Below are positions 1 to 22,886 of a stretch of DNA of 24,545 nucleotides, one piece after another. Where the stretch lies: positions 1 to 24,545 of the forward strand of contig DATKFO010000656.1 of NCBI GenBank assembly GCA_035544355.1, in the 5' to 3' direction. The DNA is from Thermoanaerobaculia bacterium (GTDB lineage: Bacteria > Acidobacteriota > Thermoanaerobaculia > Gp7-AA8). The position numbers and the translations under genes were made by a program. Below the pieces are notes generated by a model, which was not told the DNA's origin, made no database searches, and was given only the letters and a program-made list of their open reading frames with translations. The number at the start of each line of letters is the position of its first letter. Positions within the stretch are counted from its first letter, which is position 1.

Positions 1-2897
1 TCGACGTCGGTTGTAGTCGCGACGATCGTTGGCACACCGGCGATCAGAAACGCCGCGGCGAGGTTCTGGACGCCGTCGCTGGCACGTGTCGGAAGCCCGG
101 AGCGACACGCCGACAGAAAGACGAGGCGCGTTCGATGGAGGTCGAGACGTGAGATCTCACTGGCGGAAATCTCGTCGGTGATGCCGTCGGAGGCCAGAAC
201 CAGCACGGAGTCGAGCGGCCGCTCGGGCCGTGCCAACGCGTGGCCGGCGAAATGGATGATTGATGCGCTGGGCAATTCGAGTCGCAGCCGCTGCGGCGTT
301 GCTTTCCGATCGGTGAGAACCCGCGATCGCGTGTAGCTCGCCGCTACACTGCGCGCTTCGGAGGCGGCGCGGGGCAACGGACTAATTCGCGGGTGCCGGT
401 TCGAATCGAATGATGTCGCTGCGATCACTAGTGTCGAACGTTGTTCGATCACTCGCGCTTGCTTGGAACACATGATTGCGATGCTCGCGCTCGGAGCGAG
501 CGTGACCGAATAATCGTCGATCAAGCGCCGGTTGCTCGCCATGCTGCGCAGCGCGATGAATGACACTCCCGCGATACGGGGATCGGCAACGACCGCAAGG
601 TGCCGAATGCCTCGAAGCGACGGAAGCACGGGCTCGACGAGCGCTCGCCAGTCGTCGCCGGTTGCGAGTTGGACGACGTGGAGGTTCTCACGCGTCAGGA
701 CGAACGCAGCCATCCTGTCGTTGGACGCGACATATTGGACAATGGCGGCGTCCGGTGCGAGCGCCGCGGCAATGGCATCTCGCGTAAGTGTTGCCGGTTC
801 GCGCGCTGTTCGCTCGCTGATGCCGTCGAGAAGCGCCCTGGCGCGAGAACGCTCAGTAAGCGAGAACGCTTCGTCGTTGTTTCCGGTAGCGAGAGCGAGG
901 TCGATTGCCGCGCGGAAGAGGTCAACTGCCGTCGAGAGCAAGTCTGCGCGCTGCTGAATATCGATAACGTTCGCGCGCTGCTGCTCGATCACAGAAAGTC
1001 CCGTTGCGAAGTCGGTACGTGCTGCATTCGCGTCACCGCGGCGGCGGTGGATTCGCCCGCGATCGAGAAGAATCTGTGCAGCGTACACGCTGCGATCCGA
1101 TTGCTTCACGATCGACAAAGCCCGCGTCAACAACTCGATTGCACGCGATGGGTCGGTGCTCGCGAGTGCGAACGCTTCTGCGTACAACACTTCGGATTCG
1201 AGCGACTGCCGCTGACCTGCATCGGAGATCTCTCTGACCCAGCGTCGCATCTCCGCGACGTCTCTGCTGGCCCCTTCGGCGTCTCCGACGGACGCGCGAA
1301 CGATGGATCGTTGCAGCAAGGCTTCCGCGGCGCGTGTGGGATCTTTTCTTATGGCGGAGCCAGCGACCGCGAGATCGAGCAGCGGATGCGCGTGCTTCCA
1401 CTGTCCTCGCATCACCATCGATCGCGTCGCCGTCTCGAGAGCCGTCAGTTTGCGAAGATCTGCTCCGGTCCGCGAATATATGACGAGAGCTCGGCGTCGT
1501 GCACGCCACGCGTTCTCGTCGTCGCCCATGTAGTCGAGCGTTGCGGCGACGAACTCATCGAACGTTGCTGCGATTAACGGCTCGTTGAGATGCTCGAAAT
1601 GGCGCCGTGATTCTTCGAAGATATCCAGCGCCGAGGAAAAGGAGCCACGAACGAGGGCGCATAATCCGCGCTCCCATCCGATTTGGCCCGCGAGCGCCAC
1701 GTAGCCTTGTCGCTCGAAATGTCGCGCAGCCAGCTCGTCGAGAAGCGCAGCGGCCTCGGGAATCCGCGACTGCGCGTGCAGCGCGCTTGCGACGAAGTAG
1801 CGCGCGAGAAACTGCATCGGACTCGCGGCGTGGGTGAAATCTCGCACGGCTTCGCTCAGGAAGCGCTCAGCATCCGCCGGTGCGGCATTTCCGTGAGCGA
1901 TCCGCCCGTCGCGATACGCGAGGTAGGCGCGGGCGAGCATCAAGCGCCGCGATTTGTCAGCGTTGTCAATCGTGCGAACCGAATCTGCGAGCAAGTTTTC
2001 GCCCGCAATGTCGTGAAGCGCGACGCCGATTGCACGCGCGACGGCCAGCGCTCTTTCTGCGTCTGCGCGATCGCCGCGTTGCGCGGCCGTCGCCCAACTC
2101 GCTGTAAACACGCCTTCGCCCCATGCGCGAGCGTCGCGCGGATGGAGCGCCACGATTCGGAGAACTTCAGCAGCATCGTTGCGTGTGACCGCGCGTTGAA
2201 GCGCACTGACCTGCGTCGACCATAGATCGCCGCGGTTGATCTCATTGCCGATGCGGCTTGCCGCGCGCGCTGCTTCTTCCGCCCACGGTGACCCAGCCTC
2301 AGGCCAGTCGCTGTACTCCGCTTTCGCCTCCGTCAGAAGACCCAGCGCTTCCAACGCGAGTGCGCGATTGAAATGTGCGCCGAGATGGCTCGGATCGATC
2401 CGCAACGCTTCGGCGGAAGCCGCGAGGCTATCGATTACCGGTAGGAGTGTATTCTGTTCATCCGATCTTGCTAGGAGCGCGGCAGCATAGTCGTTCCACG
2501 CATCGCTGGTCCGCAGCATCGTTGCTGCACGGAGTAGTCGACTCGCTGCGCCTTCAATGTCGCCGCTGATGAGCAGCGCAACGCCCGCCGCGTGCTCTGT
2601 GCGAGGCGTGCCGTCGTCGTGTGCTACGAGTTCCTGGGCTGCGGCGCGAACATCGAGCGGCAATTCGTCGGTCCTCTGCCCCGCTGAGATTCGCATACGG
2701 CGAAAAGTCTTGTGCACGAACGGCGCAGACAGACGCGCACGAATCAGACGGAATGACATCGTCCGCATCGCCTCTGCAAGTTTGGTGAGTAGGGGTTCGC
2801 TCCGATGCTTTGCTGCTACGCGCGTCCTGTGCACAGTGAACAGCGCTACGCCGACAGCGATGCCAATGCCGAGCAACACCAGAGAACGTCTTTTCAT
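1..2897 (-). CDS. N-terminally anchored TPR + CHAT (caspase-like) protease, partial: 3' end lies beyond the left edge
   Basis: Manually translated open frame, absent from the ORF track because there is no stop in the window. Begins MKRRSLVLLGIGIAVGVALF (alternative ATG at 2912). TPR-like helices follow (AWNDYAAALL, HFNRALALEALGL, EAFSLTERSRARALLD), then the CHAT motifs IIHFAGH (His codon 240-242), FLSACRSG (Cys codon 105-107) and GVQNLAAAFLIAGVPTIVA. Confidence 0.87.
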   Translation of the reverse strand, partial: MKRRSLVLLGIGIAVGVALFTVHRTRVAAKHRSEPLLTKLAEAMRTMSFRLIRARLSAPFVHKTFRRMRISAGQRTDELPLDVRAAAQELVAHDDGTPRTEHAAGVALLISGDIEGAASRLLRAATMLRTSDAWNDYAAALLARSDEQNTLLPVIDSLAASAEALRIDPSHLGAHFNRALALEALGLLTEAKAEYSDWPEAGSPWAEEAARAASRIGNEINRGDLWSTQVSALQRAVTRNDAAEVLRIVALHPRDARAWGEGVFTASWATAAQRGDRADAERALAVARAIGVALHDIAGENLLADSVRTIDNADKSRRLMLARAYLAYRDGRIAHGNAAPADAERFLSEAVRDFTHAASPMQFLARYFVASALHAQSRIPEAAALLDELAARHFERQGYVALAGQIGWERGLCALVRGSFSSALDIFEESRRHFEHLNEPLIAATFDEFVAATLDYMGDDENAWRARRRALVIYSRTGADLRKLTALETATRSMVMRGQWKHAHPLLDLAVAGSAIRKDPTRAAEALLQRSIVRASVGDAEGASRDVAEMRRWVREISDAGQRQSLESEVLYAEAFALASTDPSRAIELLTRALSIVKQSDRSVYAAQILLDRGRIHRRRGDANAARTDFATGLSVIEQQRANVIDIQQRADLLSTAVDLFRAAIDLALATGNNDEAFSLTERSRARALLDGISERTAREPATLTRDAIAAALAPDAAIVQYVASNDRMAAFVLTRENLHVVQLATGDDWRALVEPVLPSLRGIRHLAVVADPRIAGVSFIALRSMASNRRLIDDYSVTLAPSASIAIMCSKQARVIEQRSTLVIAATSFDSNRHPRISPLPRAASEARSVAASYTRSRVLTDRKATPQRLRLELPSASIIHFAGHALARPERPLDSVLVLASDGITDEISASEISRLDLHRTRLVFLSACRSGLPTRASDGVQNLAAAFLIAGVPTIVATTTDV

Positions 2898-3008
2898 CAG
2901 GACTCTCGCCATTGTGACGGGTCGTGCTAGCGATGTCAGCGGGAACTTGTTTCGCGAACAGAGTCCGCTGAGCGCCGTCAACCTCTGCCGATTCCCCTCC
3001 ACCACCGG

Positions 3009-3182
3009 ATGCGCACTCGCGCCCGACGCCATTCCACGTCAGCCGCCGTGCTCGCCGTGCTCTTCTTCTCGATCGCCGTGCACTGCATCCGCCATCGCCA
3101 TCTCTTCCTCGAGATGACGAACCTGCGCGAGCTCCTCGACTCACGCTCGCGCACGATCGGCCACGTCGCCTTCGATTCGTAG
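3009..3182 (+). CDS. Possible small (57 aa) hypothetical protein with one hydrophobic segment
   Basis: ATG..TAG frame MRTRARRHSTSAAVLAVLFFSIAVHCIRHRHLFLEMTNLRELLDSRSRTIGHVAFDS. Third positions are strongly G/C, as in the host genes. Below the ORF-track cutoff; no clear RBS. Confidence 0.35.
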   Translation: MRTRARRHSTSAAVLAVLFFSIAVHCIRHRHLFLEMTNLRELLDSRSRTIGHVAFDS

Positions 3183-3184
3183 TG

Positions 3185-3403
3185 TGGCGTGCGCGCGGCC
3201 ATGCCGCCGCTTTGGGTCGCGTGATCTGGGTTGCAAGGTTGCGCGGTGAACCTTGGATGGCGGACTTATAGTCCGCCGGTTTTTGCGCGAGGCGGCGGAC
3301 TGTAAGTCCGCCGTCCAGGAGCCGTGATTCAGACCGCGCAACCGCGCAACTCCGCAACCCGAAATACGATACCCAAAGCGGCGGCATGGCCGCGCGCACT
3401 CCA
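3185..3403. repeat. Nested REP/BIME-like inverted-repeat composite
   Basis: Outer arms 3185-3217 and 3371-3403 (33 bp, 1 mismatch). Middle arms of octamer units GGGT-TGCAAGGT-TGCGCGGT (3228-3247) versus ACCGCGCA-ACCGCGCA-ACTCCGCA-ACCC (3333-3360). Inner arms 3253-3278 and 3293-3318 (26 bp, 3 mismatches), each containing a GGCGGACT-nnn-AGTCCGCC palindrome. Confidence 0.85.
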
Positions 3404-3405
3404 AA

Positions 3406-4851
3406 TCAAGGACACGCTGCGGCGCGCGCGATCAACTCCGCGCGATGTTCCTCCACCGCTGCGTGTGCGCGTGAGCGTGCGAGGTTCCATGCGCGCCAGT
3501 TGTGCGGGCGGTGTGCGTCCGCCGTGAGCAGGCTGCGTGCGATGCAGGGATCGTTCAGCTTCACGAGCTCCGGCGCGGCGTCCGCGCTTAGTGTCTTCGC
3601 ATATTTCACATCGAATGCGCGATGCGTGAGGCGCGCGTTCGTGCGAACGATGAGTGCGTGCGGATCGATTGCGTGCACGGAGACGAGCGCGATCAGGCCG
3701 GTGACGAGGAGGCCGATTGCGAATTGCGCGCGATGTCCGGTCAGCACGGTCGCGGCGAGCCACAGCAGCAGTACCAGCATCCAGAGCATGAACGCGGTCG
3801 CGTAGACGCGCAGCTGGGTGAGGCCGAATTCGTCGCGATAGAGGCGCATGCGCTGATATGCGGACGCGGCGATCACGAGCACGAGCGCGATCTGTAGCGA
3901 GGCGAGGATGCGGAACGTGCGCAGCGCGTGCGGGTCACTCTTGTCGACGATCCACTCGACCGCGAGCAGCATTGGCACGACGAGCACGGTCACGACGACG
4001 AGCTCGAAGAAGCCGCTGCGCGCGTATTCGGCGTACGTCATGTTGGCCGTGACTTTGACCAGGGACGATCCGCCGAAGAGATAGCGGAACTGCACGCCGA
4101 CGAACAGTGCGAACAGCAGATCGACGAGCGCGATCGCGACGTTCGTGTCGCCGGCCCGCAGTTTCTTGATCTCGAACGTCCACGGCGGCATCCACGCGTC
4201 ACTCATGAGGATGCTGCGGAAGAATCCGGCGCACGCGGCGGCGATCACGATCGTGACGATGATGTCGATCATCGTGTCGGTGAGATCGATGAAGAAGACG
4301 TCGCGCACCAGCGACGCGAATGCTTCGTCGGCGGACATGAGCAGCGCGCCGAAGATCAGCAGCGCCGGAATCGCAATCACCGTTCCGCGCAGCAGCGTGC
4401 CCGCGGTGCGCGATGCGCGGCCGACCGGGACCTGTTTCCATGTCAGATCGAACGGCAGTTTGAACACGCCCGCGATCGATTGCGCGGCGGTGACGAACAG
4501 CGCGACGACGATGCGCACGATGCCTGTCGCCCACAGGCGCACGTCGCGCGGGCCGAGGGCGAGGAGGGCGAGGAGGGGGACGATGAGGAGGCCATCGATC
4601 GCGTTGAGCTCAGGCGCGTCACGCCAGAAGATGCCGAACGCGGCCGCGATCGCGCCGATCGCGGGAAGCAGCACGGAAGTCCACGGCTGTTTGCGCGTGG
4701 TCTGCAGCAGTGTGACCGCGATGATCGCGAATGACGTCGTCCAGAGCAGTGCGTTGATGCCCCACGGGATGTTGCGCAGGAGGAAGTTGCCTGCGAGGCC
4801 GAGTGCGAAGGACGTGATGAAGATGGCGACGGCGGTGCGATGCGTGTTCAT
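3406..4851 (-). CDS. DUF4153 (DUF4173)-like polytopic membrane protein
   Basis: 481 aa with many TM segments. Motifs LLMSADEAF, FVGVQFRYLFGG, TYAEYARSGFFEL, RMRLYRDEFGLTQLRVY, LSADAAP and WRAWN match my recollection of this family. Confidence 0.8.
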   Translation of the reverse strand: MNTHRTAVAIFITSFALGLAGNFLLRNIPWGINALLWTTSFAIIAVTLLQTTRKQPWTSVLLPAIGAIAAAFGIFWRDAPELNAIDGLLIVPLLALLALGPRDVRLWATGIVRIVVALFVTAAQSIAGVFKLPFDLTWKQVPVGRASRTAGTLLRGTVIAIPALLIFGALLMSADEAFASLVRDVFFIDLTDTMIDIIVTIVIAAACAGFFRSILMSDAWMPPWTFEIKKLRAGDTNVAIALVDLLFALFVGVQFRYLFGGSSLVKVTANMTYAEYARSGFFELVVVTVLVVPMLLAVEWIVDKSDPHALRTFRILASLQIALVLVIAASAYQRMRLYRDEFGLTQLRVYATAFMLWMLVLLLWLAATVLTGHRAQFAIGLLVTGLIALVSVHAIDPHALIVRTNARLTHRAFDVKYAKTLSADAAPELVKLNDPCIARSLLTADAHRPHNWRAWNLARSRAHAAVEEHRAELIARAAACP

Positions 4852-4868
4852 GCTTTGTATTGTAAAGT
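4852..4868 (-). promoter_or_regulatory. Putative leaderless -10 (TACAAT) inside a CTTT-N7-AAAG inverted repeat
   Basis: Minus strand reads AAAGTACTTTACAATACAAAGC-ATG. TACAAT (4859-4864) lies 7 nt before the ATG at 4851. Confidence 0.5.
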
Positions 4869-4885
4869 ACTTTCTGCGCTAGAAC

Positions 4886-4911
4886 CGGCGGACTATAAGT
4901 CCGCCGTCCAA
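4886..4911. repeat. Single REP-like palindrome, same family as the inner arms at 3253/3293
   Basis: CGGCGGACTATAAGTCCGCCGTCCAA differs by 1 nt from the reverse complement of 3253-3278. It sits 3 nt past the kinase stop codon. Confidence 0.85.
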
Positions 4912-4914
4912 CGA

Positions 4915-7497
4915 CTAGAACCGCCAGCCGCGCGAGACGAACAGGTTCGACAGGTTGCGCATCACGCCGTATGCGTACGCGCTGCCGTCCGGCGTTACGA
5001 CCACGTCCATGATGCGGTACACGCCCGACGGATCGCCGGGCATGAGCTCGCGCACGAGCGTCAGCTGGCCCGTGGCGATGTTCGCCCGGAACATGCGCGC
5101 GGGCAATTCTTCTTCGCGGTAGACGAACAGCTCTTTGCCGTCCGCGCTCCACGCGACGGGTTTGTAGCCGCGCTCGATCGGCGCTTTGCGCGGCGCGGTG
5201 CCGTCGAGCGGCACGAGATGAATGAGTCCGTCTTCGTCGCCACTCACGACGATCATCGATCCGTCGGGCGATGCGGGACGCGACGCCTGCGCAATCCGAA
5301 AACCGGGATCGCCGATCGTCGACGGGTCGCCGCGGAACACGTCCTGACGATAGAGCCGCATGCGTCCGTTCGCCGCGCGTCCGTTGAACACGATCGTGTG
5401 TCCGTCGGGCAGCCACGCGCCGAACTCGTAATCTTCAATGACACCGCGCGGCAGATAGCGCGTCTCGCCCGCGCCGAGCGGCACGATCGCGAGCCGCGCA
5501 GGGAGAGTGCGGCGGCCGGGCACGATGACGAGCGCCGACTTTCCGTCGGGCGAGAGCGACACGCCGTAGCCGTCGCCGAGGCGTACGGCGGGCTCGCCGG
5601 TCGTCGGACGCGTGAAGACCGAGTAGCGCTCGCCGCCCGCTTCGCCGAATTCGCTGAACAGCAGCAGACGTCCGTCGGGCGAGATGTCGGACGTGCCGGA
5701 GCCGTCGAACCACGACAGATCGCGCTCGCGTTCCGCGCCGGCCGCGCGCGCCATCACCCCTTCGCGATAGTCGTCGCGCGTGAGCAGCAACTCGCCGTCG
5801 CGGGAAACATCGTGCAGTTTCACGACGCCATCGAGGCGGCCGATGAGCCGCTCGCTGCCGCCGAGATCGACCGCGTGCAATTCCGTCGAGCCGTTGCCGC
5901 CGCTCGTTCCGAACACGATGCGACGGCCGTTCGCGGCCCACGCCAGTCCCTTCGCGTTCGTCCACTCGCCGAGCTTGCGCGGCTTGCGCACGGCGACGTC
6001 GAGCACGAACAGCGCGAATGATTTGCCGAGGCGTGCTTCGCGGAGGCGGAAGGCGATGCGCTTGCCGTCGGGGGAGACGCGCAGATCGCGCACGCGCGTT
6101 GGACTCTGATAGACGATCGTGCGGATCGGATACTCGATTTGAAATCCGCTGCCTTCGAGCCTGCGCACGATCGCGAGCTGCTTGCCGTCGGGCGACCAAT
6201 CCGCAGCGACGACGTCGTCCGCGATTTCGCGCGGCGCGCCGCCCGCGAGCGACACGACAGCGAGCGTCCCCGAAGTCTCCGACGAATTCACGAGCAGCGC
6301 GAGATTGCCCGTGCTGCTGACTGCAAGCAATTCACGGCTGCGAATGCCGAGCGGGCGCGACTCGATCGAGTCGTTGCGCCCGGAGTAGATTTCGTAGCCG
6401 CTTCCTTCCCACGACGCGGAATAGAGGATCGAGCCGTCGGACGCGAAGCGCGCACCGGTGATGTCGCCGCGCCGGAATGTGAGTTGCCGATACGTCGGCA
6501 ACGGATTCGGCGCGACGCGTTCCCAGACGAGAATCGACGCGACGATGATCGCGAGCAGCGCGGCGGCGGCGAGAAATTTGTAGCGATGCCGCCGCACGCG
6601 CGAGCGCCAAACACTGAACGGCATCGACAGCGTGTCGGTCGCGCTGCCGAGCGCTTCGAGCGAGAACGCGAGATCGTGCGCGGTCTGGAATCGCTCTTCT
6701 TTGCGTTTCTCGAGACAGCGCTGAATCACGAGCTCGACGCCGGGCGAGACATTGACGCCGGATGCGTGCAGATCGACGGGATCGTCTTTGAGAATCGCGC
6801 TGAGGATCTCGACCGGCGTGCCGCCCTGAAACGCCTGACGCCCCGTGAGCATCTCGTAGAGGATCGCGCCGAACGCGAAGATGTCGGTCCGGCCGTCGAT
6901 CGGCTCCGCGCGCAATTGCTCCGGCGCGATGTAGCCGACGGTGCCCATCACGATGCCGGGATGCGTCTCGCCGACGAGCGTCGGGGAATCGTCGCCCGCG
7001 CCGATCGCGGCGAGCTCCGGATTCATCTTCGCCAGTCCGAAGTCGAGGATCTTCAGGCGCCCGTCTTTCGTGAGGAAAATATTTTCGGGCTTGAGATCGC
7101 GATGGATGATGCTGCGCTCGTGCGCCGCGTCCATGCCGCGCGCGATCTGCAGCGCGTACTGAATCGACTTGCGTTGCGAGAGCGGGCCTTCGCGCAAGCG
7201 CGCGCGCAGCGTCTCGCCTTCGAGCAGCTCGAGCACGATGTAGAACGAATCGCCGTGCGTGCCGAAGTCGAAGACGGTGACGAGGTTCGGATGATTGAGC
7301 AGGCCGAGCGCTTTCGCTTCCTGCTGGAACCGCGCGACGACTTGCGCCTTGCCCACGAAGGCGGAGGGAAGGATCTTCACCGCGACGTCGCGGCCGAGCT
7401 GCTCGTCACGCGCGCGATAGACCTGCCCCATGCCTCCCGCGCCGATGAACGAGAGGATCTCGTAGCGACCGAGTGTTTCGCCGGGCTCGAGGTGCAT
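4915..7497 (-). CDS. Hanks-type Ser/Thr protein kinase with TM segment and C-terminal TolB/PD40-like beta-propeller
   Basis: GAGGMGQVY, VAVK, HRDLKPEN, DFG and GTVGYIAPE motifs; TM LAAAALLAIIVASILVW; repeated WSPDG/SPDG blades. Confidence 0.95.
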   Translation of the reverse strand: MHLEPGETLGRYEILSFIGAGGMGQVYRARDEQLGRDVAVKILPSAFVGKAQVVARFQQEAKALGLLNHPNLVTVFDFGTHGDSFYIVLELLEGETLRARLREGPLSQRKSIQYALQIARGMDAAHERSIIHRDLKPENIFLTKDGRLKILDFGLAKMNPELAAIGAGDDSPTLVGETHPGIVMGTVGYIAPEQLRAEPIDGRTDIFAFGAILYEMLTGRQAFQGGTPVEILSAILKDDPVDLHASGVNVSPGVELVIQRCLEKRKEERFQTAHDLAFSLEALGSATDTLSMPFSVWRSRVRRHRYKFLAAAALLAIIVASILVWERVAPNPLPTYRQLTFRRGDITGARFASDGSILYSASWEGSGYEIYSGRNDSIESRPLGIRSRELLAVSSTGNLALLVNSSETSGTLAVVSLAGGAPREIADDVVAADWSPDGKQLAIVRRLEGSGFQIEYPIRTIVYQSPTRVRDLRVSPDGKRIAFRLREARLGKSFALFVLDVAVRKPRKLGEWTNAKGLAWAANGRRIVFGTSGGNGSTELHAVDLGGSERLIGRLDGVVKLHDVSRDGELLLTRDDYREGVMARAAGAERERDLSWFDGSGTSDISPDGRLLLFSEFGEAGGERYSVFTRPTTGEPAVRLGDGYGVSLSPDGKSALVIVPGRRTLPARLAIVPLGAGETRYLPRGVIEDYEFGAWLPDGHTIVFNGRAANGRMRLYRQDVFRGDPSTIGDPGFRIAQASRPASPDGSMIVVSGDEDGLIHLVPLDGTAPRKAPIERGYKPVAWSADGKELFVYREEELPARMFRANIATGQLTLVRELMPGDPSGVYRIMDVVVTPDGSAYAYGVMRNLSNLFVSRGWRF

Positions 7498-16398: not shown

Positions 16399-19300
16399 GT
16401 GGCCCCGCTCGTTCTTGCGCTGTTGATGGCGACTGCGCCTGTGTCGAGTGCGCCGGCGCCTGAAGCCGTCGCGTCGTCGTTCGTGCAGGCGCTCGCGTTC
16501 GATCAGATGGAGGCGTTCGAGAAGATCGCCACCGCGGAAGCCATCGCATCCCCTGACTGGCAGCTGCTCCGCAATCGCGTGGAAAAGTATCAGTGCGTGT
16601 CGGTCGCGTCGCACGAAGTTCGCGTTGTGAGCATGACCGGCGACCACATGCTCCTGCTGCTGCAACTGCACGGAACCGCCCGAAGTCGCGGCGCGGTTTC
16701 GGTCGAGAGTCCGCTGCACGATCGCTTCGAGATCGAAGCGCAGCTCGTCGACAACACGTGGAAACTGAAATCCGCGGTGTTGTACGAGCACCGTCTCGCA
16801 CAGCGAATCGCGGAGCAGCGTCCGGTCACGATCGCGTCGATCCTCGAGCACTCCACCGACGCCGATCTGCCGTCGGTTCTCATCGAGCTCGCGGATGTGC
16901 TCATCGGCGAGCCCGCGGTGGAGAAGCGGGTGCCGTCTTACGAAGCGATCATCGGCCTCGCGTGGAACATCGGCGAGCCGGCGACGGCGGTCGAGTGCAT
17001 GCGCCTCTGGTCGTCGGCCGAGGTCTCGGTGAATTCGGACGACGCGATCCCGCGCGCGTACGAGACGCTCCGGCTGGCGAACGAATTGGGCGATCCGCGG
17101 CTGATCTCCGCGGCGCATCACGCGACCGGAATCGCGGAATGGATTCACGCCAAGAACATCCCGCGCGCGGTCGAAGAGTTGCGGAAGGCTGCGGACCTGA
17201 TCGAGCGCGTTCCCGACGCGCGCGGCCCGATGAAGAGCCGCTACATGGCTTCGTATCTCCTCTCGCTGCTGGGAAATCTTCGCGGCGCGCTCGACGACAC
17301 CGAGCTGTTGTCTGCGGCTGCGGAACGATTCGACTGGACGGAAGGGCGATGCATCACCGCGTTTCGTCTGATGGTGCTTCACTGGCAGTTCGGCAACCTG
17401 GAAATCTCGAATGCCTACGCCGAAGAGGCGTATCGCATGGCGCTGCGCATGGGCGATCAGGCGTTCATCGCCATGGCGTTGCACAATCTGACGTCGGCGA
17501 CGGAGCTCGAGGACTTCAGCGCGGTGGCGCCGGTCGATCTGGCGATGAGACTGGCTGCAGCGCGAAGGGCGCTGCGGAGCGTCGGCGAGCTCGGTCGCGA
17601 GGTCCCGGTTCGCCACGGAATCGCCGAGATCCTGATCGCGCAGGGAAACGTGGCCGAAGCGGAGACCGAGCTCTCGCAGGCCCTGTCGATCGCGCACACG
17701 TACGGCGACAAAGAAAATGCATCGCTGATCCTGCTCACGCTCGCGAAACTGCGCTTGTCGCAGAAGCGATATGACGAAGCGCTGCAGTTCGCGACGGAAG
17801 CGGACCAGCTTTCGGTCGCAGTTCGGACCGTGCGCATGTCGCTCATCGCGACCGACGCGCTCCCCCAAACGTTCATCGGCGAAGCGCTGCGTGCGCTCGG
17901 CCGGCGCGACGAAGCGATCGAAGCCTTCCGCCGCGCCATCGAGATCGTCGAGCTCGGGCGGGACAGCGTCTCCGATGACCCGGCGTCGCTCTCGCTCTAC
18001 TTCGACACCAAGGCCGCGCCGTATCAGGGGCTCGTGGCGATGCTCGTCGAGCAGGGGAAGTTCGAAGAAGCGCTCGTCATCGCCGAGCAACTGAAAGGCC
18101 GCACCCTCGGCGATGTGCTCGACGGCGCGCGCATCGATCGATCGCCGACGATGTCGGACGAGGAAAAACAACAGGAGCAGGCGCTCAACGAGAGCATCTC
18201 CGCGCTCAACCGGCAGCTGCTCGCGAATCCCGCGACCAGCAACGAAGTGCGGGGTCAGCTCGCGGAGAAGCGGCTGCAGTTGCGCCGTTTTCTCGCCGAC
18301 ATCTATCTGCGGCGGCCGACGCTGCACACGGCGCGTCCCGAGGCATTTGCATCGCTCGAGCACGACGCGCCGGCGCTGCTGCACGACGACTCCGCGGCCG
18401 TGCTCGTGTACTCGGTTCACGACAGCGAGACGTTTGCCTTTCTGCTTCGCAAGCGCGGCGACGACGTGAAGCTCACGGTGTGCCGCATCGCCGCAGGACG
18501 GCGCGATCTCGAGTCGCGCGTGCTCGCGCTCGTGCACTCGATCGAAACGCGCGATCTGCAATATCGCCGCAAGGCGCGGCAGATCGACAAGCTGCTCGTC
18601 GAGCCGTTCGATCGCGAGCTCGCCGGTGTGCAGCGGCTCTGCATCATTCCCGATCGTGCGCTGTGGCGGCTGCCGTTCGAAGTGCTCGTCGCGTCCGATG
18701 GAAAGCATCTCGTCGAGCGCCGATCGATGATGTACGGGCCGTCGCTCGCGCTGCTGCGCGTTGCTCACAATCTGCCGAAGCGAAGCTCGACTCAGATGTC
18801 GATCCTCGCCGTCGGCGATCCGACGATTCGCGGCGCGACACGCTCGACGGTGCGCACGCTGCGCGATTTTCAATTGAGTCCGCTGCCCGAAGCGCGCGTG
18901 GAAGCGAATGAGATCGCGCGTTTGTACGGCTCGTCCGCGCGCGTGCTCGTCGGCGATTCGGCGACGGAGACTGCGGTGAAGCAGTCCGCCGGCAAGGTCT
19001 CGATTCTTCATCTCGCGACGCACGGCCTGATCGACGATCACGCGCAGTTGTATTCCGCGCTCGTGCTGACACCGTCCGTCGGCGACGACGGCTTGCTCGA
19101 AGCGCGCGAGATCGCGTCGCTACCGCTGCAGGCGGATCTCGTCGTGCTGTCGGCGTGCGACACTGCGGGCGGGCAGGTCGTGAGCGGCGAGGGATTGATG
19201 GGGATGGCGTGGGCAGTGATGGCGGCTGGATGTCCGCGCATGATCGGCACGCAATGGCGCGTCGACTCCGCCGCGGCGGCGCGATTGATGGTCGCGTTTC

Positions 19301-19440
19301 ACAAGCGATTGTCGCGAAGCAACTCGGTCGCCGCGGTGTCCGATCATCTGCGCGGCGCGCAGCTCGAGCTGCTGCACAGCGCGGACTACAGCCATCCGTA
19401 CTACTGGGCGGGATTCGTCTTCATCGGCCGCAACGACTGA
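16399..19440 (+). CDS. Exported TPR + CHAT (caspase-like) protease
   Basis: Signal-like MAPLVLALLMATAPVSSA, TPR helices, EQLKGRTLGD, IIPDRALWRLPFEVL, HLATHG (His 19021-19023), VVLSACDT (Cys 19156-19158), HPYYWAGF. Confidence 0.92.
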   Translation: MAPLVLALLMATAPVSSAPAPEAVASSFVQALAFDQMEAFEKIATAEAIASPDWQLLRNRVEKYQCVSVASHEVRVVSMTGDHMLLLLQLHGTARSRGAVSVESPLHDRFEIEAQLVDNTWKLKSAVLYEHRLAQRIAEQRPVTIASILEHSTDADLPSVLIELADVLIGEPAVEKRVPSYEAIIGLAWNIGEPATAVECMRLWSSAEVSVNSDDAIPRAYETLRLANELGDPRLISAAHHATGIAEWIHAKNIPRAVEELRKAADLIERVPDARGPMKSRYMASYLLSLLGNLRGALDDTELLSAAAERFDWTEGRCITAFRLMVLHWQFGNLEISNAYAEEAYRMALRMGDQAFIAMALHNLTSATELEDFSAVAPVDLAMRLAAARRALRSVGELGREVPVRHGIAEILIAQGNVAEAETELSQALSIAHTYGDKENASLILLTLAKLRLSQKRYDEALQFATEADQLSVAVRTVRMSLIATDALPQTFIGEALRALGRRDEAIEAFRRAIEIVELGRDSVSDDPASLSLYFDTKAAPYQGLVAMLVEQGKFEEALVIAEQLKGRTLGDVLDGARIDRSPTMSDEEKQQEQALNESISALNRQLLANPATSNEVRGQLAEKRLQLRRFLADIYLRRPTLHTARPEAFASLEHDAPALLHDDSAAVLVYSVHDSETFAFLLRKRGDDVKLTVCRIAAGRRDLESRVLALVHSIETRDLQYRRKARQIDKLLVEPFDRELAGVQRLCIIPDRALWRLPFEVLVASDGKHLVERRSMMYGPSLALLRVAHNLPKRSSTQMSILAVGDPTIRGATRSTVRTLRDFQLSPLPEARVEANEIARLYGSSARVLVGDSATETAVKQSAGKVSILHLATHGLIDDHAQLYSALVLTPSVGDDGLLEAREIASLPLQADLVVLSACDTAGGQVVSGEGLMGMAWAVMAAGCPRMIGTQWRVDSAAAARLMVAFHKRLSRSNSVAAVSDHLRGAQLELLHSADYSHPYYWAGFVFIGRND

Positions 19441-20306
19441 AGCAGGCGTTTAGCTTCGGGCAATTTCGATTTCTCGAATTGCGCGGCCGCCGCGGATTCC
19501 ATTCCTTCACGTGCGTAGATCAATCCGGCAACGAGCGGATCATCGTGGCGCTTCACTTCCTTGAGCTCGGCGAGCGCCTTTGCATCGAGGATCTGGAAGC
19601 GTGCGGGTGGAGTGGGCGGGCTGGGCGCGGTGATCTCTTCGCCACCTTTGCGCACGAGGATCTGCCACGTGAGGATCTCGCCGCGCGGCAGCGGCTTGCT
19701 CGGCTGCCACGATGACACGTGCAGCCACGAGCTCGACGCGACGCTGTGAAACTTGCGGTCGTAGATCTCGACCTTCACCGCGTCGCCGTCGTAGGTCCAA
19801 CGAAACTCGGGACGAGCGTCTTCGACGACGATGCCGACGGGCTCGTTCAGCGCGTTCTTTTCCGGCGCAGGAACATCACCGCTGCGAACGCGTCCCGCAG
19901 TCGGATTGAGCAGCGCGAGGATTGCTGCCCGTTTCTCCGAGAGAATTTCGCGCACGAGCGGCTGCCACTTCGGATCGAGCGTCGCGACGGGCGCCGGCGG
20001 TTTGATCGTGTGGTGAACGATCGCCGGAACGTGCGTCGGTTGTTCGTTGCGCCGATTGAGCAGAAGCGTGCCTGCGACGATCGCGATTGCCGCGGCCACG
20101 GTCAGCGGCACGAACCAGCGCGTGGGCTGCGGTTGCAGCGTCTCGCGCCACGCATCGGTCGCGCGTCGCAGTGATTCCGGAGTCGCGATCTTCGCGCGGC
20201 ATTCTGCGCAATCCGTGATGTGCGCATCGACGGCGATCCATTCTTCGGCCGCGAGCGTGCCTGCCCGATACTTCTCGATCGTCTCGGCGGAAATGTGTTC
20301 GCTCAT
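19401..20306 (-). CDS. Zinc-binding anti-sigma factor (zf-HC2/ZAS), one TM segment, extracytoplasmic domain
   Basis: Start revised to ATG 20306 (MSEHISAE), which overlaps the sigma stop (ATGA). HITDCAEC is HxxxCxxC; TM WFVPLTVAAAIAIVAGTLLL; 301 aa. Confidence 0.85.
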   Translation of the reverse strand: MSEHISAETIEKYRAGTLAAEEWIAVDAHITDCAECRAKIATPESLRRATDAWRETLQPQPTRWFVPLTVAAAIAIVAGTLLLNRRNEQPTHVPAIVHHTIKPPAPVATLDPKWQPLVREILSEKRAAILALLNPTAGRVRSGDVPAPEKNALNEPVGIVVEDARPEFRWTYDGDAVKVEIYDRKFHSVASSSWLHVSSWQPSKPLPRGEILTWQILVRKGGEEITAPSPPTPPARFQILDAKALAELKEVKRHDDPLVAGLIYAREGMESAAAAQFEKSKLPEAKRLLQSLRPMKTNPAQ

Positions 20307-21301
20307 CGCTTCGGCCTCGCCTTCGCGCGCATTCTTCGCTCGAGACGATCGCGCGCCGATCTTCGTAGATTGATCACCTGCTGTCGTTGCATGCCGAGTT
20401 GGTCGGCGATGCGCAGATCGTCGAACGGCAGCTCGTTCCATTGCTGCGCGAGCTCGGTCGCGCTCATCTCCAGCGTCCTTGCGAGCTCGTGCAACGTGGC
20501 GATGCCGGTCGCGGGCAACAGATGCGTGATCGATTCGCCCGACGCATCGCGCGCGTGCAGCAGGAGCGCGATGCGCTGGCGAAGCGGCAGCTCGCCGATC
20601 TCGCTCCAGAGCAGGCGGAGATACTGGCTGTTCTCGAGCTCATCGCCGATCGACGGCGTCTGCGCAGTCGTCTGTTCCGGCAGCTCACGAGGCTCTCCGG
20701 TGATTCCGGTGGCTGCTGCGACGAGGACGACGAGCGCTTCGAACGAAACGGGGAATCCGATCTCGCGCAACGTCGCGACGACCGAATCGGCGAGATCGCG
20801 CGCGTGCCAGTGCTCGACAGTCGCAGGGATCTCGTGTGCAGCGCGGCCGTGCCACTCGCGCAAGCCGCAGGCGAGTTGCCGCGCATCGCCCCAGATCGCG
20901 AGGCGCGGATCGTTTTCGAATGCATAGCGAAGACGATTCTTGAGCCGCGCGCGCTCCGGATTCTTGCGCTGCATGAAATCGTCGAAGGCGTTGAAGGTGA
21001 CGACGGCGACATAGTCGGAAAAGCTCTCGATCGGATCGGCGCCGCCCGATTCGAGCAGACGGTCGATTCGCTTGATCAAACGGACGGCGACGTCGGCGCG
21101 GATGTCTTCCGCATCGGGGTCGTGCAACCGCTGACGGAAACGCGATGCGAGGATCGCATCGATGGCCGGATAGGCGTGCTGCTGAAAAAGCGCGGCCATG
21201 GCTACCTCTCGATCGGTGTCGTTCAATGCCCCGAGGACTTCGTGCAGGACCGGATCGTTTCCGCGGGTGCTATTCGTTGAGACCGTCCGATCGCTGCTCA
21301 T
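20303..21301 (-). CDS. Atypical long ECF-type sigma-70 factor
   Basis: Region-2-like AEDIRADVAVRL..FSDYVAVVTFNAFDDFMQR. Region-4-like LWSEIGELPLRQRIALLL..IADQLGMQRQQVINLRRSARDRL. Coupled to a ZAS anti-sigma gene. Confidence 0.8.
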   Translation of the reverse strand: MSSDRTVSTNSTRGNDPVLHEVLGALNDTDREVAMAALFQQHAYPAIDAILASRFRQRLHDPDAEDIRADVAVRLIKRIDRLLESGGADPIESFSDYVAVVTFNAFDDFMQRKNPERARLKNRLRYAFENDPRLAIWGDARQLACGLREWHGRAAHEIPATVEHWHARDLADSVVATLREIGFPVSFEALVVLVAAATGITGEPRELPEQTTAQTPSIGDELENSQYLRLLWSEIGELPLRQRIALLLHARDASGESITHLLPATGIATLHELARTLEMSATELAQQWNELPFDDLRIADQLGMQRQQVINLRRSARDRLERRMRAKARPKR

Positions 21302-21440
21302 ATTGGCAGTCGCCCAGCCACGGGCCCGACGATATCAGACGACGCCGACACGATCAGCCAGCCAACGCCGCTTTCCCGCTATACTCGCCGCGGTCACTTT
21401 GTAAATAACTTCCATTTTCGGGTCGTGAAGGCGGGTTTCG

Positions 21441-22886
21441 ATGGGCTTCTCGAGCAGGTTCTTGCGCGCCGCGGCGATTGCTGCGCTCATCAACGGCAGT
21501 GCGGGGGTCGCGCATGCGGCCGACTGTAACTCCTTCGTCCGCCTATTCTCACAGCGCGCCTCGACGCCGAATTTCGTCGCGTCGCCCGTCGCGTGGACCG
21601 GCACGACGTTCGGCATTGCCAAGACCGATTCGTTCTCGGTATCGGAGGCGATCTACTTTGCCGTCTACGACAGCGAGATGGCGCCGCTCTCGCCCGATCG
21701 CCTCGTCGCCGACAGCTCGCTGAAGGGGCCGACCGCGCTGCTCTGGACCGGATCGGAGTTCGGCCTCTTCTATCAAACGCCGAACCTGCAGCTCGTGCTG
21801 CAGCGCATTTCGTCGGTCGGCGTGCCGATCGGCGGACCGATCGAGATCGCGAAACATCACGCCACCGCGACGGACGACGAGTTCGACGTCGTTTGGGATC
21901 CGTTCCGCAATGCGTACGCCGTTGCGCGCACGATCGCGCAGACGTCCGATCGCGGCGTGTGGCTGATGATCGTCGGCACCGACGGCACGCTGCGCAAAGA
22001 CGTGGTCGTGAATTTCTTCCAGGCGCGGCCCGCGAAGGTGCGTGTCGCGGCGACGACGACCGGCACGATCGGCATCACGTTTCTGCGCTCGACGAATAAC
22101 GCGCTGCAGCTCGTGCGCGTGACGAGCACGGATGCGGTGCAGTTGCCGCAGACCGCGTCGACGACGGCCGAAGACGCGCGCATCGCGCCGCGCGACGCGG
22201 GCTTCGTGATCGTTTCGTCGACGCATGATTCGGGTACGGGGCGTGGCGTGATGAATTGGGCGCGCGTCGATGCGGACGGAAAGATCTCTGCGGAGTCGAC
22301 GCTGTTCAACGCGATCGGCATCGACGTCGCGCCGGTGTCGCTCGCATGGAACGCGCAGCGCAACGAATGGGCGCTCGCGTATCTCTCGTCGCAACTCGGA
22401 TTCCGAGTGTTTCCCGGCGAATATCGCCTGCGCCGTTTCCGCGCGACCGGCTCGCTGATCAGCGACACGCTGTTCTCGCCCGATCCGCTGCGCAACACCG
22501 CATCGACGAGCTATCCGATCGTCTCGACCGGCACCGCGTACTTCAGCTCGATCGAGTTGTTCGTCTCGCGGCAGGAGGGCAGCGATTCGTATGTCGTGCG
22601 CCATTGCCCGCTGACTGCGACCGCGACGGCGAGCACCGCATTCCCGCGCCCGTTCGACACCATCACATTCACCGCAACCGTGAGCGGCGGTACGCCGGAG
22701 TTTTCCTATGTGTGGGACTTCGGCGACCTCTCGAACCTCGAGAAAACCCCGACGATCACGCACCGCTTCGACCGCGAAGGCACCTTCGTCGTCACGCTCA
22801 CCGTGACCGACGCCGCCGGCGGCAAGTCGGTGACGACGACGACGGTGAAGGTCGCTGCCGGCAAGCGACGGGTGGGGCGGCGGTAG
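21441..22886 (+). CDS. Secreted protein with repeat-containing N-terminal domain and C-terminal PKD domain
   Basis: Signal peptide ending AHA. PKD motif FSYVWDFGD..PTITHRFDREGTFVVTLTVTD. Basic tail GKRRVGRR. Confidence 0.85.
   Translation: MGFSSRFLRAAAIAALINGSAGVAHAADCNSFVRLFSQRASTPNFVASPVAWTGTTFGIAKTDSFSVSEAIYFAVYDSEMAPLSPDRLVADSSLKGPTALLWTGSEFGLFYQTPNLQLVLQRISSVGVPIGGPIEIAKHHATATDDEFDVVWDPFRNAYAVARTIAQTSDRGVWLMIVGTDGTLRKDVVVNFFQARPAKVRVAATTTGTIGITFLRSTNNALQLVRVTSTDAVQLPQTASTTAEDARIAPRDAGFVIVSSTHDSGTGRGVMNWARVDADGKISAESTLFNAIGIDVAPVSLAWNAQRNEWALAYLSSQLGFRVFPGEYRLRRFRATGSLISDTLFSPDPLRNTASTSYPIVSTGTAYFSSIELFVSRQEGSDSYVVRHCPLTATATASTAFPRPFDTITFTATVSGGTPEFSYVWDFGDLSNLEKTPTITHRFDREGTFVVTLTVTDAAGGKSVTTTTVKVAAGKRRVGRR

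Follow-up and report, generated by a model that had tools for sequence, protein, structure and literature searches.

What does a caspase-like protease do beside the genes of a sigma factor and its membrane-bound inhibitor? The question is raised by a locus of a Thermoanaerobaculia bacterium of the phylum Acidobacteriota (assembly GCA_035544355.1, contig DATKFO010000656.1), from which a stretch of 24,545 nucleotides, here called the window, was analysed. In the window, a gene for a protein with tetratricopeptide repeats (TPR) and a CHAT protease domain converges on a two-gene operon that encodes a sigma factor resembling those of the extracytoplasmic function (ECF) type and a single-pass anti-sigma factor with a ZAS domain. 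A first-pass annotation of the DNA had described this arrangement, and all three genes are present where it had placed them; it had proposed that the protease, once exported and activated by a bound ligand, cuts the outer part of the anti-sigma factor. Our analysis indicates that sigma factor, anti-sigma factor and CHAT protein very probably form one functional cassette. The best overall explanation that we can offer, with a probability of roughly 0.4, is a three-gene cassette for envelope signalling that is the split counterpart of the DdvA/DdvS system of Myxococcus xanthus.

The genome is a metagenome-assembled genome (76% complete, 916 contigs) with ~15 CHAT matches, and adjacency alone therefore says little: at the CHAT density of these genomes (~15 per 4.5-6 Mb), a random 20-kb stretch holds a CHAT gene in ~7% of cases. 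Among 60 related genomes, homologues of the sigma factor (32-42% identity) were found at seven loci in six genomes, and at 7/7 of these loci an anti-sigma homologue adjoins and a CHAT gene lies within 0.1-7 kb. When one genome was scanned for each GTDB species, 304 relatives were returned, the best 80 of which were used for locus counts; these 80 all belong to Acidobacteriota (Thermoanaerobaculia, Blastocatellia/Pyrinomonadaceae, Vicinamibacteria and Bryobacteraceae/Solibacter). Conservation of the triad across genomes, which the first-pass annotation had named as a check on its proposal, was borne out: a CHAT gene is present in the flank of 58 of the 65 loci with enough flanking sequence, and lies no more than 200 bp from the pair in ~48. 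The gene is convergent and downstream of the anti-sigma gene, as in the window, at 33 loci, co-directional and downstream at 17, directly upstream of the sigma gene at 5 and divergent at 3. A chance adjacency is excluded by this conserved linkage.

All-against-all clustering of the open reading frames (ORFs) of 85 loci placed the sigma factor in 82, the anti-sigma factor in 78 and the CHAT protein in 62, and no other family was common. Sigma and anti-sigma genes are paired in 78 of the 82 loci, often with overlapping stop and start codons. No conserved cas gene or defence family was found in the flanks of the 85 loci, and with only the three cassette families conserved there, the system is independent of CRISPR, as had been supposed. 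The genome of the window holds a second sigma/anti-sigma pair (contig C92); immediately behind it lies a TPR gene of like type, truncated by the end of the contig.

The three proteins have also diverged together. Distance-matrix correlations were r = 0.87 for sigma and anti-sigma, 0.71 for sigma and CHAT, 0.76 for anti-sigma and CHAT, and 0.80 for the anti-sigma ectodomain and the N-terminal part of the CHAT protein, values reached by 0/500 permutations; such Mantel correlations are inflated by shared ancestry and demonstrate co-inheritance, not contact. The nearest neighbours of the sigma and CHAT proteins agree in 19 of 46 loci. In a tree of 77 CHAT-domain sequences, all triad-linked CHATs fall into one clade (51 tips, support 0.83), which stands apart from the remaining paralogues in these genomes. 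The clade also contains CHATs without a sigma or anti-sigma gene nearby, on contig C119 of genome G000 (~2030-5023, + strand) and at G020:C71:80764-81621. The closest paralogue of the window CHAT is among these sigma-less proteins, which may be orphan or trans-acting copies.

What kind of protein is the protease? It scores 227 bits (cut-off 24) with the Pfam CHAT model (PF12770), a match that covers residues 724-1010, and also has several TPR matches. An AlphaFold2 (AF2) model (predicted local distance difference test, pLDDT, 87.7; predicted template modelling score, pTM, 0.86) comprises a low-confidence helix (residues 1-20), an NTF2-like alpha+beta domain (22-128), a TPR superhelix (129-650) and the CHAT domain (~660-1013). 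A Foldseek search with this model returned Csx29 first (1e-16) and DdvA second (2.7e-15), with separase at 7.6e-14, and on the model the fold is that of the TPR-CHAT proteins of the craspase/separase/DdvA type. Kinship with DdvA or another solved protein at the level of sequence was considered and rejected, as phmmer matched the CHAT protein to only designed TPR proteins among the PDB sequences; the link is structural only. The His/Cys dyad, which the first-pass annotation had read as intact, is made up of His875 and Cys920, both invariant in an alignment of 46 orthologues. A signal-peptide-like N-terminus is found at the same place in 45 of 48 full-length orthologues, as judged by a hydrophobicity heuristic and not by a dedicated predictor such as SignalP, and export would therefore be a trait of the family. 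The sequence thus predicts a protein exported by Sec to the periplasm.

The anti-sigma factor offers a plausible partner in the same compartment. A longer ORF for it, which begins at 20441, is probably over-extended, and the start at MSEHISA is preferred. The zf-HC2 model scores 15.6 bits in the window protein, under its cut-off of 22.2, and is listed in 55/55 relatives at E <= 1 (best 4e-16); a ChrR-type N-terminus matches at 6.7e-5. The ZAS residues H29, C33 and C36 are invariant across 55 sequences, and HxxxCxxC is present in 73 of 74 orthologues. Many orthologues (for example those at loci L009, L010 and L012) have two tandem ZAS-like segments before the transmembrane helix, where the window copy has one. 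The AF2 model (pLDDT 84.8) consists of a four-helix ZAS bundle (residues 7-57), a single transmembrane helix (66-86), a disordered stretch after it, three short conserved helices (105-133), a flexible linker (134-152) and an outer sensor/docking part (153-292) modelled at pLDDT 92-98. The transmembrane region is also visible in the family alignment as a conserved column block rich in Ala, Leu and Val. On this model the C-terminal domain is extracytoplasmic, and the claim that protease and anti-sigma ectodomain share one extracytoplasmic compartment fits both the modelled topology and the signal peptides of the CHAT orthologues.

Between two confidently modelled parts of the anti-sigma factor lies a linker (residues 134-152) of low pLDDT. 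The family motif at the junction of helix and linker is L-[R/L/M]-G, which in the window reads VRS within RVRSG, and the linker is a candidate site of regulated cleavage. Comparison of the ectodomain sandwich with PDB structures gave generic Ig/FN3 matches only, and Big_10, Ig_Rha78A_N and TPR matches occur among the relatives. Assignment of the outer domain to DUF928 (PF06051) gained hardly any support beside this generic Ig/FN3 fold: the signal is very weak at most, with no match in the window protein at E <= 10 and matches in 2 of 55 relatives (best E 0.01), and no paper linking DUF928 with CHAT was found.

The sigma factor is the least conventional member of the set. It matches TIGR02937 with an E-value of 1.9e-8 and 34.1 bits, under the cut-off of 42.9, and a Pfam scan of the window protein gave no match; Sigma70_r2 matches 5 of 8 relatives. 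In the ESM Atlas, its structural neighbours are ECF sigma factors (TM ~0.5), and its clusters are acidobacterial and carry the automatic name 'hypothetical protein'. The family alignment contains conserved sigma-2 and sigma-4 blocks with ~100 extra conserved residues between them and a second insert inside sigma-4, and the family profile found nothing in PDB at E <= 0.1. The ECF sigma factor of the first-pass annotation thus holds good as a member of the sigma-70 family and fails as a textbook ECF sigma, with its 332 residues and its score under the ECF model cut-off; the protein is a divergent, unusually long sigma-70-family member. Because of their sub-cut-off Pfam and NCBIfam scores and their 'hypothetical protein' names, such sigma factors may be absent from ECF censuses.

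These properties bear on the simplest objection, that the three genes have no direct functional link and are a mobile or co-inherited block, or that the 'sigma' does not function as one. The low scores against curated models and the blank PDB comparison agree with the latter, and the unconserved flanks of the loci, together with the two to four cassette copies that several genomes hold, are compatible with mobility. However, the linkage survives repeated changes of order and orientation and divergence to ~30% identity, which argues for selection on the set, and the flanks of the 85 loci contain no recurrent transposase or integrase family. The sigma factor is, moreover, consistently paired with a clear ZAS anti-sigma factor and has ECF sigma factors as structural neighbours. 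We regard the absence of a functional link as very improbable.

The features of the locus are collected in Table 1. As the CHAT and anti-sigma genes are convergent and overlap at their 3' ends, the CHAT gene is a neighbour of the sigma/anti-sigma operon and lies outside it; it starts 25 bp from the end of dnaE. CHAT/anti-sigma overlaps of 48-66 bp are present at loci L009, L011, L012 and L058, and through convergent transcription there the expression of one unit could become tied to that of the other. The window also contains a second large TPR-CHAT gene (3-3032, - strand; at least 1010 aa), which runs off the window end. Its product has an N-terminal membrane anchor, lacks a ZAS motif and has no adjoining sigma gene; in the CHAT-domain tree it clusters with a fused anti-sigma-CHAT protein of a related genome, outside the triad clade.

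Table 1. Features of the cassette and its surroundings in the window, with positions counted from the first nucleotide of the window.
Feature	Position	Strand	Remarks
Gene for TPR-CHAT caspase-like protease, 1013 aa	16399-19440	+	Predicted to be exported
Signal-peptide-like N-terminus of CHAT protein, MAPLVLALLMATAPVSSA/PAPE	16399-16458	+	Hydrophobic h-region, then small-x-small site
CHAT catalytic dyad	19021-19158	+	His875 codon 19021-19023; Cys920 codon 19156-19158
Convergent 3' overlap of CHAT and anti-sigma genes, 40 bp	19401-19440	both strands	ORF coordinates
Gene for single-pass ZAS anti-sigma factor, 301 aa, from MSEHISA	19401-20306	-	
Predicted periplasmic sensor/docking part of anti-sigma factor: Ig/FN3-like domain (153-239) and four TPR-like helices (242-292)	19431-19850	-	
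Juxtamembrane helices (105-133) and flexible linker (134-152) of anti-sigma factor	19851-19994	-	Predicted periplasmic; column conservation and model
Transmembrane helix of anti-sigma factor, residues 66-86	20049-20111	-	AF2 helix and conserved column block
ZAS motif H29-x3-C33-x2-C36	20199-20222	-	
Gene for divergent long ECF-like sigma factor, 332 aa	20303-21301	-	
ATGA overlap of sigma stop and anti-sigma start (translational coupling)	20303-20306	-	Read from sequence
Divergent intergenic region between sigma gene and gene for secreted PKD-domain protein	21302-21440		CGTCGTCT, putative -10-like element, sigma strand
Gene for secreted PKD-domain protein	21441-22886	+	Pfam PKD, 1e-11 to 2e-12; divergent from sigma gene

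Which side of the sigma switch does the protease stand on? In the regions ahead of the sigma genes, a search for dyads returned GGTAATA-N16-CGTC, which has the typical layout of an ECF promoter and is the putative promoter recognized by the cassette sigma factor. Scored with a position weight matrix (PWM) of this motif, the loci yielded 220 hits and block-shuffled sequence 78, counts that are biased upward, the matrix having been seeded near the cassette; the strand asymmetry of the hits is free of this bias. Of the hits in the loci, 39 occupy the narrow gap that precedes the anti-sigma gene and 21 precede the sigma gene. Others point outward, 16 of them next to the start of the sigma gene and 18 next to that of the CHAT gene, and 6 follow closely on the anti-sigma gene and point onward; only 2, both weak, point into a CHAT gene. 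The motif recurs two to three times per cassette at loci L013-L087, for example at L048:6261 (-), L048:7369 (+) and L048:11861 (+).

Genes behind the outward-facing motifs are diverse, mostly with signal peptides, and include those for OmpA-like, PQQ/BamB-like propeller, RHS and Kelch/galactose-oxidase-like proteins, two HlyD proteins and a 1396-aa S8 subtilase. The cassette seems to carry its own regulon in its flanks, with the sigma factor likely to feed back on its own operon and to drive the flanking secreted-protein genes. Since the motif almost never faces a separately transcribed CHAT gene, the protease is probably on the input side, and where it is separately transcribed it is likely not a sigma target.

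The reverse arrangement would make the CHAT protein an output of the sigma factor, an exported protease whose task is the maturation or degradation of envelope or secreted proteins, or defence against them, with the sigma/anti-sigma pair sensing an unrelated envelope cue. The secreted nature of the motif-bearing neighbours, with the S8 protease among them, agrees with such a role, as does the co-directional placement of the CHAT gene with the pair in 22 of the 58 loci, at small gaps of mostly ~100 bp or less. By contrast, at the 36 loci where CHAT is separately transcribed, the motif faces away 18 times and toward the gene only twice and weakly. The outputs of the regulon vary between genomes whereas CHAT is constant, and the recurrent fusion of TPR-CHAT to anti-sigma factors (see below) suits a regulator better than an effector. 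A role as output is hence unlikely in our view, and a periplasmic role of the CHAT protein at the input of the switch is probable.

The closest relatives of the window locus have a CGTCT -10-like box after a GCA(C/A)ATAT-like -35 element, which differs from the family -35. With no PWM hit in 21302-21440, the assignment of the -10-like element there is weak, and a generic scan of the window for promoters and terminators was uninformative. Elsewhere, the neighbour transcribed divergently from the sigma gene is often behind the family motif; in the window, the gene for the PKD-domain protein is a possible target of the sigma factor, by its position only.

How might the three proteins work together? 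We propose that the cytoplasmic ZAS domain of the anti-sigma factor would tether the long ECF-like sigma factor to the membrane. On its periplasmic side, the single-pass anti-sigma factor would display an Ig-like/TPR-like module, which a short helical stalk and a flexible linker precede. The NTF2-TPR-CHAT protein, exported by Sec to the same compartment, would dock on this ectodomain and, when activated by a periplasmic cue, cut the linker as the site-1 event. A site-2 protease of the RseP type would then free the sigma factor, which would transcribe from promoters of the GGTAATA-N16-CGTC type its own operon, with feedback through the anti-sigma factor, and the flanking genes for secreted and envelope proteins. 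The physical contact, the cleavage of the anti-sigma factor, the cue and the part played by RseP are elements that we infer. A candidate for the last step is encoded in the same genome, in a 441-aa frame on contig C251 that matches the M50 family (PF02163) with 223 bits. Cleavage by the CHAT protein is the most economical reading because it needs no fourth component, because an M50 protease is present and because a conserved flexible linker lies where the cut is needed. That the CHAT protein makes the site-1 cut in the linker and RseP completes the release is nevertheless a tentative proposal, on which we would not wager at even odds. The fuller statement, in which a signal-activated CHAT protease acts in trans on the ZAS anti-sigma factor, from a cassette multiplied in Acidobacteriota, and so switches on flanking genes for secreted proteins, is somewhat more doubtful still.

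The same data would suit a CHAT protein that is the periplasmic partner of the anti-sigma factor and cuts another protein, such as a signal precursor or a foreign or cargo protein. The Ig/TPR ectodomain would then dock or monitor the protease, and the sigma factor would be released through a change in this contact or by a conventional site-1 protease. Linkage, co-divergence, the shared compartment and the conserved dyad fit this alternative equally well; the ectodomain, an Ig-like sandwich with TPR-like helices, is a generic protein-binding module, the extra NTF2-like domain and long TPR array of the CHAT protein could bind other ligands, and cleavage of the anti-sigma factor is undemonstrated even for DdvA. 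Yet no fourth conserved gene could supply a dedicated substrate, and the conserved flexible linker with its L-[RLM]-G motif would be left without a role. We judge cleavage of another protein, the chief rival reading, to be rather unlikely.

Several observations weigh against the signalling cassette with a CHAT protein at its input, in addition to the shared ancestry behind the distance correlations and the seeding of the matrix. Seven evaluable loci have no CHAT gene nearby. No obvious replacement protease was found at these seven loci, and the five of their genomes that were searched all encode triad-type CHATs elsewhere (750-980 bits). Conversely, three CHATs of the triad clade are not known to adjoin a sigma gene. 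At the 22 loci with a co-directional gene, CHAT is probably co-transcribed with the pair, and an output role is possible there. The signal peptide of the window CHAT lacks a basic n-region and would be weak evidence of export if taken alone, and the family PWM has no hit of at least 9 bits at the window locus. For DdvA, self-cleavage by the CHAT domain as the site-1 step is only proposed, and mutants of its dyad have no phenotype in unstimulated cells (PMC11506125).

The locus offers a practical way into the question. A test with DdvA is difficult, because a single polypeptide holds both protease and substrate and no trigger is at hand. Here, the protease and the 215-residue ectodomain of the anti-sigma factor (residues 87-301) are separate proteins, and the site-1 idea is thus testable in trans. 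The candidate promoter motif could serve as a reporter, and the many natural paralogues offer specificity swaps. If the proposal is true, this would be the first caspase-family enzyme shown to start the regulated intramembrane proteolysis of a sigma-factor inhibitor. The cassette also gives access to signal transduction in Acidobacteriota, a soil phylum that is dominant yet little studied.

Anti-sigma factors are canonically controlled by regulated intramembrane proteolysis, as in the DegS/RseP-RseA-RpoE and PrsW/RasP-RsiW-SigW pathways. The cassette resembles these in its single-pass anti-sigma factor with a predicted cytoplasmic sigma-binding domain, in the proposed extracytoplasmic site-1 event and in an M50 site-2 protease. 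The site-1 enzymes of the canonical pathways are serine proteases or metalloproteases encoded elsewhere, whereas the candidate in the cassette is a cysteine protease of the caspase family encoded by an adjoining gene. CHAT proteins have also been reported in the conserved neighbourhood of ECF54 of Actinobacteria, along with carboxypeptidase and subtilase genes (PMC8999054). The likeness lies in the CHAT neighbours; ECF54 belongs to another phylum and another sigma group, and is described without an anti-sigma factor. CHAT is absent from the main text of the ECF reclassification of 2021, and in the literature searched no description of the split cassette of Acidobacteriota was found.

Craspase is closer in its enzymology. 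In this type III-E CRISPR system, the TPR-CHAT protein Csx29 cuts Csx30 and frees CASP-sigma, an ECF-like sigma factor (PMC10028731; PDB 8eey). Both systems would have a TPR-CHAT protease that cuts a sigma-binding inhibitor, and Csx29 is the best structural match of the cassette protease. Craspase is, however, a cytoplasmic enzyme from a CRISPR locus that RNA switches on by way of Cas7-11, whereas the cassette protease is predicted to be exported, its inhibitor is a membrane-bound ZAS anti-sigma factor, and its loci have no conserved cas gene.

The nearest known system is DdvA/DdvS of Myxococcus xanthus, in which DdvA is a single-pass ZAS anti-sigma factor whose periplasmic domain is a TPR-CHAT with a His/Cys dyad (PMC11506125; PDB 8rot, 8rw5); removal of the TPR-CHAT domain leads to RseP-dependent degradation (PMC11506125). 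Common to DdvA/DdvS and the cassette are the ZAS single-pass anti-sigma factor, a sigma factor that is of the ECF type or, in the cassette, resembles it, and a TPR-CHAT with its dyad, periplasmic in DdvA and predicted to be so in the cassette, and also the proposed logic of a site-1 cut by CHAT followed by RseP. They differ in several respects. DdvA carries anti-sigma factor and TPR-CHAT as one fused chain and works as a dimer that may cut in trans, whereas the CHAT of the cassette is a separate protein, predicted to be exported by Sec and with an extra NTF2-like domain, and the anti-sigma factor has its own Ig/TPR ectodomain. The cassette sigma factor is an atypical protein of 332 aa; the DdvS regulon is a CBASS/CRISPR defence island, whereas the motif-bearing neighbours of the cassette encode varied secreted and envelope proteins. 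Sequence identity between the cassette CHAT and DdvA is only ~14%.

Fused proteins are found in Acidobacteriota as well. When 301 acidobacterial genomes were scanned with the anti-sigma profile, three fused ZAS-transmembrane-TPR-CHAT proteins of 1077-1163 aa were recovered (L088:4103-7441, +; L089:4355-7588, +; L090:2595-6086, -), each encoded right after a sigma-70-family (ECF-like) gene. One of these genomes, G068, has no CHAT gene besides the fused one. DdvA-type proteins had been found only in Myxococcota and one Comamonas (PMC11506125), and fused DdvA-like anti-sigma factors thus extend beyond Myxococcota. Kinship of the sigma factors of these pairs with the triad sigma factor was rejected, their similarity being marginal only. 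A small tree had hinted that the fused CHATs are sister to those of the triads, which was likewise rejected, since the 77-sequence tree scatters them among other paralogues. Given this position in the tree, the argument from fusion is one of architecture and not of orthology, and this also limits the case for the cassette as a signalling unit. We argue that the fused forms reflect a functional association between periplasmic TPR-CHAT and ZAS anti-sigma factors that has recurred, and not a simple fission. The first-pass annotation had missed that a link between an extracytoplasmic CHAT and a ZAS anti-sigma factor has already been published, in the fused form of DdvA/DdvS (PMC11506125). Because the defining feature of DdvA, the fusion of anti-sigma factor and TPR-CHAT, is replaced here by two genes on opposite strands, the locus is filed as a split variant; it belongs to a known kind of system and is not a wholly new concept.

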